Assembly: GCA_963813065.1 (NCBI GenBank)
Contig: CAWEXP010000002.1
Coordinates: 1-63,334 of the forward strand
Reading direction: 5' to 3'
DNA from: Candidatus Kaiserbacteria bacterium
Lineage (GTDB): Bacteria; Patescibacteriota; Minisyncoccia; Phycocordibacterales; Phycocordibacteraceae
DNA length: 63,334 bases
The notes under the pieces: generated by a model
Databases searched by the model: none
Told to the model about the DNA's origin: nothing
What the model saw: the letters and a program-made list of their open reading frames with translations, nothing else
Made by a program: the position numbers and the translations under genes
Part shown: positions 5,877-38,630 of the stretch, one piece after another
Position numbering within the stretch: the first letter of the stretch is position 1
Layout of the letters: each line of letters starts with the position of its first letter

Positions 5877-7772
5877 TTACACTTTCAAATCGTCATCTTT
5901 CTTTTTGGGCGTGATGCCGTTCGCGATGAGCAGGTTCTCGAAATCATCGCGTTCGAGTGTCTCTTTTTCTATCAGAGCCTGCGCCACCGCTTCGAGTGCG
6001 CCGCGATGCGCGTCGAGCACCTCTGCCGCGCGCGTCTTCGCCGTGTCGATAATTTTTGAAACTTCCGCATCAATCTTGGCCGCCACGGCGTCTGAGTATG
6101 GCTCCATCCCGAGCGAACGCTCGCCGAAGGCGATTGGCCCGAGCGTGGTGCTCATTCCGTAGCTCGCCACCATATCGCGCGCGAGCGCGGTGATGACCGC
6201 GAGATCGTTGCTGGGCCCGGTGGTGACGTCGCCAAATATGGTCTCCTCCGCAACGTAGCCACCGAGCGTCGCCGCGATATCATCGAGGAATTGTTTGCGC
6301 GACTGCATCTTTTTATCTTCAAACGGCAACTTCAGCGTGTACCCCGCCGCGCGCCCGCGACTGATGATAGAAATCTTGTGCACCGGGTCGGCATATTCGA
6401 GCACCGAGGAGACGATCGCGTGCCCCGCTTCGTGATACGCGGTCAGCTCTTTCTCTTTCTTGGTGAGCAAATGTGATTTCCGTTCCGGACCCAACATGAC
6501 TTTTTCAATAGAACGAATCAAATCGAATTGTGCGACTTCTTTCCGATTCTCGCGCGCGGCGAGAATCGCGGCCTCGTTCATCAGCGAGTAGAGCTCCGCG
6601 CCAGAGAAACCGGGCGTGCGCTCGGCGACGACTGCGAGATTCACATCGGGGCCAAAGGGCTTCTTGCGCGCATGAATTTTCAAAATATCTTCGCGGTCCT
6701 TGCGGTCGGGCAGATCAATGGTTACGCGTCGGTCGAAGCGACCAGGGCGCAGGAGCGCCGGATCGAGCACGTCAGGGCGATTCGTTGCCGCCATCACCAC
6801 CACCTTCTCATGCGGCTCGAAGCCGTCCATCTCGACGAGAATCTGGTTGAGCGTCTGCTCGCGCTCGTCGTTGCCACCTCCGCCACCTGCGCCGCCGACG
6901 CCACCACGCGTGCGTCCAACCGCGTCAATCTCGTCGACGAAAATAATCGCGGGCGCCGCTTTCTTCGCGAGCTGGAAGAGGTCGCGCACCCGAGAGGCGC
7001 CCACGCCGACAAACATTTCCACAAATTCTGAACCGCTAATCGAGAAAAACGGCACGCCCGCCTCGCCCGCCACCGCGCGCGCGAGGAGCGTCTTGCCCGT
7101 GCCCGGCGCGCCCATGAGGATAATGCCTTTCGGGATGCGCGCGCCAATGTCCAAGAACTTTTTTGGATTCTTCAAGAAGTCGACAATTTCTAGCAGCTCT
7201 TCCTTCGCCTCGCGCGCGCCGGCAACATCGTTGAAGGTGACGCGCTGACTCGAATCCGCCGGATCAATCACGCGCGCTTTGGACTGGCCGAAGGTGAACG
7301 CCTGCATGCCCGCACCCTTGACCTGTCGCGAGAGGAACCAGAACAGGAGCGCGATAAACACGAGCGAGAGGATAATCGGCGAGAGCTCGAGAAACCAGAA
7401 TTGGAACGCCGACTCGCCCTGCACGGTAATCGCAACTTTCGTCAGCGCGGCGGGCGCCACACCATAGGTCGCCAGCGTCTCGGGCAATCCGGCGGCCGGG
7501 TCCTTATGCGACGTTTTCTCCGAACCGTCGGCGTAGTGCAGGTCGAGATTGTCACCACTTACCGTGATGCTCGAGACTTTGCCTGCGCTGACATCGCTCG
7601 CCACCTGCGAGAGCGGAATCGAGGCAGGCGCCGTGCCGATATTCGCGACGAGCGAGTATGCGCTCATCAAGAATAGGAAAATCAGCACCGTGACGGCGAG
7701 ATTGGAAACGAAGGAGGTGCCGCCCCACGCGGACTTCTTTTTCTTTTTGCTCGTATCCTGTTTTTTTGCCAT
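5877..7772 (-). CDS. ftsH: ATP-dependent zinc metalloprotease FtsH
   Basis: Two TM helices, [46 protein letters not shown]. Confidence 0.98.
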
Positions 7773-9560: not shown

Positions 9561-9963
9561 GGGGGTGACCGGCTTTGACGGTCTGTACGTTGAAATCGCG
9601 CGACGCAGTGCATGCTCGACTGCCACTCTAATCCTCTCGAGCACCAAACTTGCCAAGAACACCTTTGCAAGCGTGATGTCGCCGTACTTCGGTGCGGCTG
9701 ACTTCGCGTTCGTCTACGCGTAACCCTTACGGGTCTTCGCCTAGCGACGTCTTCCCTCTCCCGGCGCTCACAGCGCGAGGGCGGGCGGAATTATCTGTGA
9801 GATCGGCGACGAGCTTTCCGCCTCGTTTGCCTAAATAAGGAATCGGATAGGAATGGTTTCGTCGATGTTCCTCGCATCCTATCTTAAAACTAACGTCGAC
9901 TATGCGTCGTAGAAGCGCTTCAACTACCAGATTCGGACGTGGGTCCAATTCCCACCATCTCCA
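9561..9963 (+). ncRNA. ssrA: tmRNA
   Basis: 5' GGGGGTGACCGGCTTTGAC; 3' T-arm GTGGG-TCCAATT-CCCAC and CATCTCC-A with G3.U70; internal tag ORF 9652..9723. Confidence 0.93.
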
Positions 9964-9979
9964 CAACAGTAAACACCTG

Positions 9980-35498: not shown

Positions 35499-35499
35499 G

Positions 35500-35572
35500 A
35501 GCCGGAGGTCGGACTTGAACCGACGCACTTTCGCTTACGATGCGAATGCTCTACCAACTGAGCTACTCCGGC
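35500..35572 (-). tRNA. tRNA-Thr(CGT)
   Basis: Acceptor GCCGGAG/CTCCGGC, anticodon arm TTCGC-ATCGTAA-GCGAA, T-loop TTCAAGT. Confidence 0.93.
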
Positions 35573-35586
35573 GTATTGAGAAAATA

Positions 35587-36057
35587 TCATTCTTTCCCCT
35601 TTTTTGCGAGTGTCCGCGCTTCCGCCGCACGCTTGCTCGGTGCACGATATACTCTGCCATTCCCCTTGTTGAGCGCGGAGAATGTCGGAGTAAGAGCATC
35701 GCAGTTCGGACATAGGAGCCGGAGATTTTTCTCCACATTATTTTTCCAATTCCCGTCTATATGATCAGCCACGAGCGGCGCAACCTGTGTTACCGAGTTC
35801 ACTTTGGACCATCCGCACAGGCAACATTTATTTCCGTACTTCTCTCGCAAGTATCGTTTGATGTGGCCACCAACAAGACCCAGACTGTTTAATCCGACTT
35901 CTTTTCCATCCTTCCATCTCTGTATATAGCTACGATATTGGAATTCTTGCTGGCACGCATTACTGCAGTATTTGTAGAATGAACGTGCAGGTTCTTTCCC
36001 GCACACGGGACACTTTGGTCGTGATTTCCTTGGGTTCACTCTTTCACTATACTGCAA
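35587..36057 (-). CDS. HNH endonuclease with Zn-finger motifs
   Basis: CPVC, YCSNAC, CCLC, DHIDGNWKNN..NLRLLCPNC. Confidence 0.9.
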   Translation of the reverse strand: MQYSERVNPRKSRPKCPVCGKEPARSFYKYCSNACQQEFQYRSYIQRWKDGKEVGLNSLGLVGGHIKRYLREKYGNKCCLCGWSKVNSVTQVAPLVADHIDGNWKNNVEKNLRLLCPNCDALTPTFSALNKGNGRVYRAPSKRAAEARTLAKKGKE

Positions 36058-36109: not shown

Positions 36110-36359
36110 AGCCGCCTCCCAGATTTGAACTGGGGACCTACTCCTTCGCTTACACCTCCGTTTCTTTGTATCGGGGGGCTAGACTGTATCTTTGTCCGCA
36201 AGGGACACCCTTGTCAGTCGTTCGAGCGCCAGAGGCGCTACGGTCTTGTCCGTCGCCGGATATTAACCGTTATTCGGGATTCACGATTCCCTCGCGAGAA
36301 TCGTGGGCAGGGGTTTGCGACCCACCATGGAGTTGCTCTACCAACTGAGCTAAGGCGGC
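36110..36359 (-). tRNA. tRNA-Thr(GGT) interrupted by an intron (exons 36359-36324 and 36146-36110)
   Basis: Joining the exons gives GCCGCCT/AGGCGGC, ACTCC-ATGGTAA-GGAGT and T-loop TTCAAAT. Confidence 0.9.
36147..36323 (-). ncRNA. Group I self-splicing intron (177 nt, no ORF) at tRNA position 36/37
   Basis: 5' exon ends in U and can form GGU/GCC (U.G at the splice site); P2 CACGATTCTC-GCGA-GGGAATCGTG; P7 GACTG/CAGTC; J8/7 AAGATA; P8 TGTCC/GGACA; terminal G. Confidence 0.85.

Positions 36360-36801: not shown

Positions 36802-38630
<1,829 letters not shown>

Follow-up and report, generated by a model that had tools for sequence, protein, structure and literature searches.

Our analysis shows that a tRNA-Thr(GGU) gene of a Candidatus Kaiserbacteria bacterium is interrupted by a new, widespread and very compact group I intron, at a host site for which we found no description. 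The gene lies in a stretch of 63,334 nt (contig CAWEXP010000002.1 of assembly GCA_963813065.1), the whole of which was analyzed and is called the window here. The best overall explanation is that the insert is a splicing group I intron, belonging to a family that occupies this one tRNA site in many lineages of the candidate phyla radiation (CPR), is missing from some close relatives, and has kin in phage capsid genes. We consider this explanation very likely, and the intron probably splices itself, judging from its sequence.

The interrupted gene is made up as follows; intron nucleotide i corresponds to window coordinate 36324 - i.

36110..36359, minus strand: complete interrupted tRNA-Thr(GGU) gene (precursor tRNA, 250 nt); its joined exons are called by ARAGORN
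36324..36359, minus strand: 5' exon, tRNA positions 1-36, with the anticodon GGU at its end; reads GCCGCCTTAGCTCAGTTGGTAGAGCAACTCCATGGT
36147..36323, minus strand: group I intron, 177 nt, delimited by a leave-one-out profile and a fold backed by covariation
36110..36146, minus strand: 3' exon, tRNA positions 37-73; reads AAGGAGTAGGTCCCCAGTTCAAATCTGGGAGGCGGCT

The insert (36323..36147) starts with GGGTCGC, ends with TAAGCG and separates anticodon nucleotide 36 from nucleotide 37. A preliminary description of this DNA had claimed that its removal restores a perfect tRNA, and this is what we observe: with the insert deleted, ARAGORN calls a tRNA-Thr(ggt) of 73 nt with all four arms paired. The exon-intron boundaries are unique and cannot be shifted, because the first intron nucleotide is a G and the first nucleotide of the 3' exon is an A. 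Among the 77 homologous genes described below, the exons pair with each other in the anticodon, T and acceptor stems in 99.7-100% of alignment cells, compensatory changes included. ACC is the most common threonine codon in seven sampled open reading frames (ORFs) of the window (74 of 141), which implies that a working GGU tRNA is needed. Codon usage and the perfect exons in 77 genomes together argue that the gene is used and that the intron is removed.

The secondary structure that we propose for the intron consists of the following elements.

36306..36311, minus strand: internal guide strand; the anticodon binds its G16 C17 C18 (P1), and intron nucleotides G1-G3 bind its C13 C14 U15 (P1 extension)
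36282..36305, minus strand: P2 hairpin, 10 bp, with the GCGA (GNRA) loop L2 at 36292..36295; all 10 pairs change on both sides
36276..36278, minus strand: 5' strand of P3, CCC; its partner GGG lies at 36208..36210 and forms the core pseudoknot with P7
36240..36270, minus strand: P4 (ACGGU/ACCGU), A-rich internal loop J4/5 and J5/4, and P5 with a GCGA loop
36225..36239, minus strand: P6 hairpin (AGCGCC UCU GGCGCU); five of six pairs change on both sides
36208..36224, minus strand: R-type core element, that is J6/7 CGAAC, 5' strand of P7 GACUG, J7/3 ACAA and 3' strand of P3 GGG; almost invariant
36193..36207, minus strand: P8 hairpin (UGUCC CUUGC GGACA) with tandem C-G pairs; five of five pairs covary
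36182..36192, minus strand: S-type core element, that is J8/7 AAGAUA and 3' strand of P7 CAGUC; the P7 strand is invariant, J8/7 invariant or nearly so
36155..36179, minus strand: J7/9 dinucleotide G145 C146 (5' strand of P9.0) and P9 hairpin; six of six P9 pairs covary
36147..36149, minus strand: last three intron nucleotides G175 C176 G177, the 3' strand of P9.0 plus the terminal guanosine (omega-G)

All the landmarks on which the preliminary description had based its group I reading are present where it had placed them: the U.G pair at the splice site, the GNRA-capped P2, P7 (GACTG/CAGTC), J8/7 (AAGATA) and the terminal G. To evaluate the fold we placed it on a MAFFT alignment of 77 distinct sequences (A1) and counted pairs. 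In this alignment 95.6% of cells are paired, compared to 76.9% in shuffled alignments and 35-44% when the partners are slid by one to three columns. Changes on both sides occur in 49 of 71 pairs. Those landmarks that vary do so in a compensatory manner, and P4, P7 and the U.G pair of P1 do not vary at all, which bears out the group I reading. At the level of the aligned sequences, the fold, the geometry of the splice sites and the conservation of the core are demonstrated.

The individual helices tell the same story. In P1 the last three nucleotides of the 5' exon face the intron's guide strand, and the pairs G34-C18, G35-C17 and U36.G16, the last being the wobble at the 5' splice site, are found in 77 of 77 sequences. 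The guide-strand helix as a whole is 96.3% paired, and the three pairs of its extension change on both sides (GU/GC/UA, GC/AU and GC/UA). P3 has a mere three base pairs; it is 99.1% paired, and each C-G has become U-A in separate lineages. P5 covaries at four of four pairs. P4 (ACGGU/ACCGU, 77 of 77) and P7 (GACUG/CAGUC) never vary; they are silent on pairing, but such constancy is to be expected of a catalytic core. In the window P9 has six pairs, one of them a C.A mismatch that recurs in one relative (L014), and an 11-nt A-rich loop. P9.0, which joins the two nucleotides before the terminal G to the two nucleotides after the 3' strand of P7 (36178..36179 with 36148..36149 in the window), forms in 74 of 77 sequences and comes in four Watson-Crick types. 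Because P9.0 covaries, it fixes the 3' end of the intron. The terminal G is present in every parsed insert at this site, a feature that later also served to select the sequence set. For a P10 helix with the 3' exon we found no convincing pairing, as the 3' exon begins with AAG and the guide strand offers just CCU.

The core shows the topology that defines group I introns, P3-P4-P5-P6-P7-P3'-P8-P7', including the P3/P7 pseudoknot. It also shows the U.G pair of P1, R and S elements that include a G-C pair in P7 together with a J8/7 some six nucleotides long, and a terminal G with P9.0. The G105-C142 pair of P7 is the candidate guanosine-binding site. The classical R and S elements correspond to the blocks CGAACGACUGACAAGGG and AAGAUACAGUC, almost invariant in A1. 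The same pattern is seen in GUUCAGAGACUAC and GAUAUAGUCC of the psbA intron of cyanophage S-PM2, which the Rfam group I model RF00028 recognizes (a comparison at the sequence level).

Evidence for tertiary structure comes from L2, which takes the form of a GNRA loop in 74 of the 77 sequences. Where L2 is GAAA, P8 carries an asymmetric motif of the CUAA...UAUG type that resembles the 11-nt tetraloop receptor. In its strict form this motif is found in 13 of 29 sequences with a GAAA loop and in none of 45 with other GNRA loops; most of the remaining GAAA sequences have close variants of it, as judged by eye. Where L2 is GYAA or GYGA (GCGA in the window), P8 is a plain helix with tandem C-G pairs. 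By this count L2 and P8 covary as a tetraloop-receptor pair. We argue that covariation over such a distance means that the RNA folds into a working three-dimensional structure. Features of subgroup IC3 are also present, namely a site in a tRNA anticodon loop, a compact P2-P9 without P2.1, P5abc or P9.1 and beyond, and the docking pattern of L2 and P8; this assignment is judged by architecture.

How widespread is the intron? We scanned species-representative genomes with a pattern anchored in the exons, in which the D-arm is followed by an anticodon stem of any sequence, by TGGT and by a base that is not A; there were at least 120 matches, of which 120 were listed. Among the matches listed, at least 84 have a homologous insert at this site, either whole or represented by its 5' part. 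The gene could be parsed completely in at least 77 loci, with inserts of 176-266 nt between positions 36 and 37; in seven further loci the end of the locus is reached after the 5' part. The 77 introns have a median length of 193 nt, 16 of them are at most 181 nt long, and 55 are shorter than the 205-nt Azoarcus intron. The window intron had been called unusually small, which at 177 nt it is. A profile built from the 76 other introns, with the window left out, matches it from end to end at 36323..36147 (E=2.9e-39). The scan count is an underestimate because the pattern demanded a base other than A after GGT: two loci (L122, 2677-2712, and L123, 1498-1533) hold family members whose first intron nucleotide is A, the junction reading GGT followed by AAACATTTTGCCC.

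Nearly all intron-bearing matches listed are metagenome-assembled genomes (MAGs) of Patescibacteria. They include Kaiser-, Wolfe-, Nomura-, Moran-, Jorgensen-, Uhr-, Peregrini-, Doudna- and Saccharibacteria. Judged by flanking genes, the window is closest, among the relatives found, to the Paceibacteria/Kaiserbacteria-type genomes L072, L121 and L104. One 181-nt family member lies outside the CPR, on a 300-kb contig of the cultured Bacteroidota isolate Niastella populi (L050, 5197-5450). Its presence suggests horizontal transfer, and the isolate offers a culturable system for splicing tests. The intron can also be absent: genome L124, whose PrfB is 74% identical to that of the window, has an intronless tRNA-Thr(GGU) at 1902-1977, hence the intron is present or absent among close relatives.

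A regular-expression search for additional copies of the intron in the window and the 120 listed loci returned none outside tRNA-Thr(GGU). A metagenome scan for the family in tRNAs with a different D-loop (GGNTAGAGC) returned more tRNA-Thr(GGU) genes and a chance match in an apparent 23S rRNA, and no other host within the limits of the pattern. As a separate observation, three Solirubrobacterales MAGs (L005, L019 and L057) and one Microsaccharimonas genome (L054) have the 5' half of tRNA-Thr(GGU) followed by unrelated sequence after GGU. Neither a 3' half nor the core of the Thr-intron family was found in the downstream sequence searched, and these genomes may carry, at this position, another kind of insert or one that is much longer.

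The closest relatives by sequence are viral. We scanned viral contigs from IMG/VR with the P7/J8/7 core pattern, which also returned many chance matches and other intron families. About 26 viral elements match the Thr-intron profile almost end to end (E=1e-14 to 1e-26). They have the P4, J6/7-P7 and J8/7-P7' blocks in common with the Thr introns. In one contig (L192) three introns of 190, 190 and 184 nt (6280-6469, 6746-6935 and 7569-7752) interrupt a single gene, and their removal leaves one ORF of 447 aa with a match to a PHROG family of major head proteins. The boundaries were set by eye, with a U pairing to the guide G and a terminal G as in the Thr introns; the continuous ORF is an independent check on them. 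Automatic calling of splice sites by the longest spanning ORF was ambiguous for viral contigs and was abandoned, so that manual boundaries were used, for L192 only. The L192 host gene differs from ours in that it encodes a protein rather than a tRNA, and the guide sequences differ as well. ARAGORN found no intron-bearing tRNA around the other viral relatives. Cultured phage genomes searched with the window precursor tRNA and with a viral-type intron gave tRNA-exon matches or nothing. One intron family links CPR chromosomes with phage structural genes.

A less expected feature concerns the 3' end of the intron.

36317..36319, minus strand: L1 nucleotides C5 G6 C7, able to pair with the trinucleotide that ends the intron, as an alternative to P9.0; identified by covariation

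Complementarity between nucleotides 5-7 of L1 and the trinucleotide at the intron's 3' end (CGC and GCG in the window) is seen in 58-60 of 77 sequences, compared to a maximum of 36-48 in shuffles. The combinations CGC/GCG, CGU/ACG, CAC/GUG, CAU/AUG and CUC/GAG all occur. L1 positions have the 3' end as their top partners in mutual information (0.87 for 6-176 and 0.57 for 7-175), on a par with the values for P9.0 (0.89 for 145-176 and 0.58 for 146-175). Within the alignment, nucleotides 175-176 have two mutually exclusive covarying partners, J7/9 and L1. One could speculate that the L1 helix may park the 3' splice site next to P1 and bar G177 from the guanosine pocket during the first step, after which P9.0 would take over. 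We found no description of a pairing between L1 and the 3' end of group I introns in the searchable literature. The dual covariation provides a directly testable hypothesis, in which the 3' splice site is first retained and then delivered.

Based on this fold, splicing would proceed in two steps. First, anticodon nucleotides G34 G35 U36 would pair with the guide G16 C17 C18 to form P1, the U36.G16 wobble marking the 5' splice site. P1 would dock onto the core formed by P3-P8 and P4-P6, with L2 (GCGA) in the minor groove of P8 clamping the two halves of the core together. A free guanosine held at the G105-C142 pair of P7 would then attack after U36. In the second step the terminal G177 would enter the same pocket, placed there by the 2-bp P9.0 (G145 C146 with G175 C176). 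The 3'-OH of U36 would attack after G177, which would join U36 to A37 and restore the 7-nt anticodon loop AUGGUAA. These chemical steps are modeled on the general group I mechanism (PMC3984707, PMC13168695), from which we infer both the chemistry and splicing in the cell. The guide GCC reads GGU much like a codon, with a G.U wobble, and this explains why the intron is specific for its site.

Several observations weigh against this reading. One is the failure of RF00028. On the window the model gave no match at its gathering score, nor at E<=10 in a 551-nt stretch, and there was no match at E<=1 in 12 homologous loci or at E<=5 in eight viral loci that hold relatives. The preliminary description had declared beforehand that an empty covariance-model search should count as a refutation, and the search was empty for the window as well as for the 12 homologous loci. 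In one control the model finds the compact, ORF-less S-PM2 psbA intron (203 nt) with 87.8 bits. In a second control it missed the ORF-containing td and nrdB introns of T4. None of the other Rfam families gave a group I match in the window, in the 12 homologous loci or in the viral loci (relatives and other core-pattern matches). Hence, the negative result is real, and the Thr-intron family is outside the reach of the single Rfam model. We read it as a gap in the model and not as a refutation because the comparative evidence for the fold is strong. A model match is an aid to detection and not a defining feature of group I introns; the defining structural features were each tested and each found, so the group I reading stands.

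Other objections concern splicing itself. Searches of metatranscriptome reads returned other tRNAs (e.g., a Thr(UGU)-like contig), an uninterrupted, highly expressed tRNA-Thr(GGU) of unplaced origin, and unspliced relatives. It is possible that a second, intronless tRNA-Thr(GGU) gene exists elsewhere in the genome, beyond the 63-kb window. Finally, with a P3 of 3 bp and no P10, the intron may splice alone or may need the help of a protein.

The preliminary description also expected standard annotation to overlook the tRNA, and this proved to be the case. Default ARAGORN calls six other tRNAs in the window and misses tRNA-Thr(GGU), as does the Rfam tRNA model. With its intron option ARAGORN finds a tRNA here, misplaces the intron and labels the gene tRNA-Arg(gcg). 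CPR genomes with this intron will therefore appear to have no tRNA-Thr(GGU), which distorts completeness checks and inferences on decoding. This gap in annotation would be closed by a model specific to the family and trained on the alignment of 77 sequences.

Is the host site new? In the searchable, incomplete literature we came across no account of a group I intron in tRNA-Thr(GGU), so the suggestion of an unreported host site stands to that extent. At the same time the element is abundant in public genomes, and group I introns in CPR tRNAs have been mentioned in generic terms (PMC8172020), which limits the claim. The tRNAscan-SE 2.0 paper lists cases in fMet and Ile2 (PMC8450103). The introns of cyanobacterial and plastid tRNA-Leu(UAA) and tRNA-fMet and of tRNA-Ile2 in Acidovorax and Burkholderia reside in other tRNAs and other phyla, and unlike the Thr(GGU) intron they are recognized by existing models and literature.

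Among known introns, the one in Azoarcus is close in design. It, too, interrupts its tRNA behind anticodon position 36, and it has an L2 that docks on P8. Both introns are compact, lack an ORF and reside in the anticodon loop of a bacterial tRNA; both have P2-P9 plus P9.0 without large peripheral domains (PMC13168695). They differ in the host tRNA and in the guide (GCC reading GGU in the window), a comparison made by description. In contrast to the Azoarcus intron, the window intron has a P3 of just 3 bp, no apparent P10, an additional covarying pairing between L1 and the 3' end, and no match to RF00028. If the window intron is self-splicing, then nature provides a group I ribozyme some 14% smaller than that of Azoarcus, with many natural variants, which should benefit structural studies and help to delimit the minimal catalytic core.

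The region downstream of the interrupted tRNA may be relevant to how the intron spreads.

35587..36057, minus strand: free-standing HNH endonuclease gene, 156 aa (PHROG phrog_1271, E=7e-20)
35499..35572, minus strand: tRNA-Thr(CGU), called in the window scan, 15 nt downstream of the HNH gene

The HNH gene starts 52 nt downstream of tRNA-Thr(GGU) on the same strand and ends 15 nt before tRNA-Thr(CGU). The preliminary description had mentioned neither this gene nor the phage relatives of the intron. Sequence searches of Pfam and PDB gave sub-threshold matches that point to HNH_3 and I-HmuI. The protein has 1771 homologous clusters, few of them with a source name; those that are named are called HNH endonuclease or endonuclease by NCBI (in CPR genomes) and hypothetical protein or YacG-family protein by JGI. 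In 10 other scanned loci a homologue with 60-76% identity follows the intron-bearing tRNA. Of the genomes to which the protein alone led us, two (L121, and L122/L123; three loci) have the intron and L124 does not. Where relatives lack the HNH gene, either a gap of 2-100 nt or ordinary genes separate the two tRNA-Thr genes; in the close relative L072 the gap is 2 nt. Homologues are 60-76% identical to the window copy both where PrfB identity is 75% and where it is 51% (e.g., 72.7% at a PrfB identity of 51.5%), and GC content at third codon positions is 48% in the HNH gene compared to 66-77% in neighboring genes. Optional position, identity unlinked to host divergence and a foreign base composition are marks of a mobile free-standing homing endonuclease gene, and the HNH gene is a possible partner in intron mobility. 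Together with the link to phage genes, an optional HNH gene next to an interrupted tRNA gene makes a tractable case for studying the movement of introns without an ORF.

One could go further and suppose that the window intron is the type member of a separate group I subclass of very compact introns (176-200 nt, less than the 205 nt of Azoarcus), invisible to RF00028 and common to CPR tRNA-Thr(GGU) and phage capsid genes, in which a toggle between L1 and J7/9 orders the splicing steps and replaces P10, and which spread with the aid of the HNH enzyme in part of the lineage. We put this forward tentatively, as a conjecture that is more likely than not to be wrong in the whole or in parts.

The role of the nuclease could also be more specific. 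In collaborative homing the HNH enzyme would cut intronless tRNA-Thr(GGU) genes at the insertion site, the intron would protect the genome that carries it, and repair would copy the intron and often the nuclease gene as well. The arrangement fits, in that a free-standing gene that matches PHROG HNH endonuclease families adjoins an intron-bearing gene, forms an insertion polymorphism between two tRNA genes, and recurs beside the intron in the loci described above. The mechanism is documented for phage introns without an ORF (PMC6083498, PMC3984707). The best parallel is the S-PM2 psbA intron, also a small group I intron without an ORF (203 nt by its RF00028 match) with the free-standing nuclease gene F-CphI immediately downstream (PMC6083498). 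The parallel has its limits: the psbA intron scores 87.8 bits with RF00028 and the Thr-intron profile does not match S-PM2, F-CphI is Endo VII-like whereas the window enzyme is HNH, and targeting of the insertion site is shown for F-CphI while the window HNH protein is a candidate against which L124 speaks. L124 carries the HNH gene beside tRNA-Thr(CGU) and about 1 kb downstream of an intronless tRNA-Thr(GGU), and under collaborative homing such a genome would cut itself. Moreover, about 67 of 78 intron-bearing loci among the matches listed have no HNH gene, and no homologue of it was found near the viral intron relatives. Just as well, tRNA-Thr(CGU) or the spacer could be what the nuclease cuts (intronless homing). 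SegB, from the tRNA gene clusters of T4, and MobE, also of T4, are likewise optional nuclease genes between conserved genes (PMC3984707, PMC2790892 and the T4 annotation). These are phage genes, whereas the window HNH gene lies on a bacterial chromosome between two tRNA-Thr genes and has a predicted activity. On balance, we regard collaborative homing at the tRNA-Thr(GGU) site as rather doubtful.

Returning to the splicing group I intron as the preferred explanation, it could be that the fold is not autonomous. Given how sparse its periphery is (P3 of 3 bp, small P5 and P9, P10 lacking), the intron might need a host or phage-type protein at physiological Mg2+ concentrations. The Azoarcus intron, at 205 nt, exceeds it by 28 nt (PMC13168695), there is no evident P10, and many group I introns need protein helpers (PMC3984707). 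Yet, the clamp between L2 and P8 and P9.0 are conserved, the helices are rich in G+C, the intron encodes no candidate maturase, and most intron-bearing loci lack the HNH gene. Dependence on a protein hence seems unlikely to us.

One could also argue that the intron has decayed and does not splice, the gene being a pseudogene and ACC/ACU being read by another tRNA. The RNA reads without evidence of splicing, the failure of RF00028, the short P3 and the C.A mismatch in P9 would agree with decay. Decay is contradicted by exons that are perfectly tRNA-like and by compensatory changes in every stem across 77 genomes, by an almost invariant catalytic core and peripheral helices kept up by covariation, which implies selection on the RNA fold, by ACC being the dominant threonine codon in the sampled ORFs, and by the recurrence of the same C.A mismatch in L014. 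We consider it highly improbable. A bulge-helix-bulge tRNA intron (canonically short and at 37/38) is ruled out by the 36/37 position, the 177-nt length, the conserved ribozyme core and the bacterial host, and a group II intron, an insertion sequence or miniature inverted-repeat transposable element, or an assembly artifact by size, position, the conserved core and recurrence in many independent assemblies.

Two minor observations concern other parts of the window. A glmS-like gene (36802..38630, plus strand) extends over three overlapping frames (36802..37497, 36953..38155 and 37923..38630), a layout that implies two frameshifts; these may reflect a pseudogene or indels in the assembly. At 9561..9966 on the plus strand lies a tmRNA gene (Rfam RF00023, 79 bits) that has a long insertion relative to the model.

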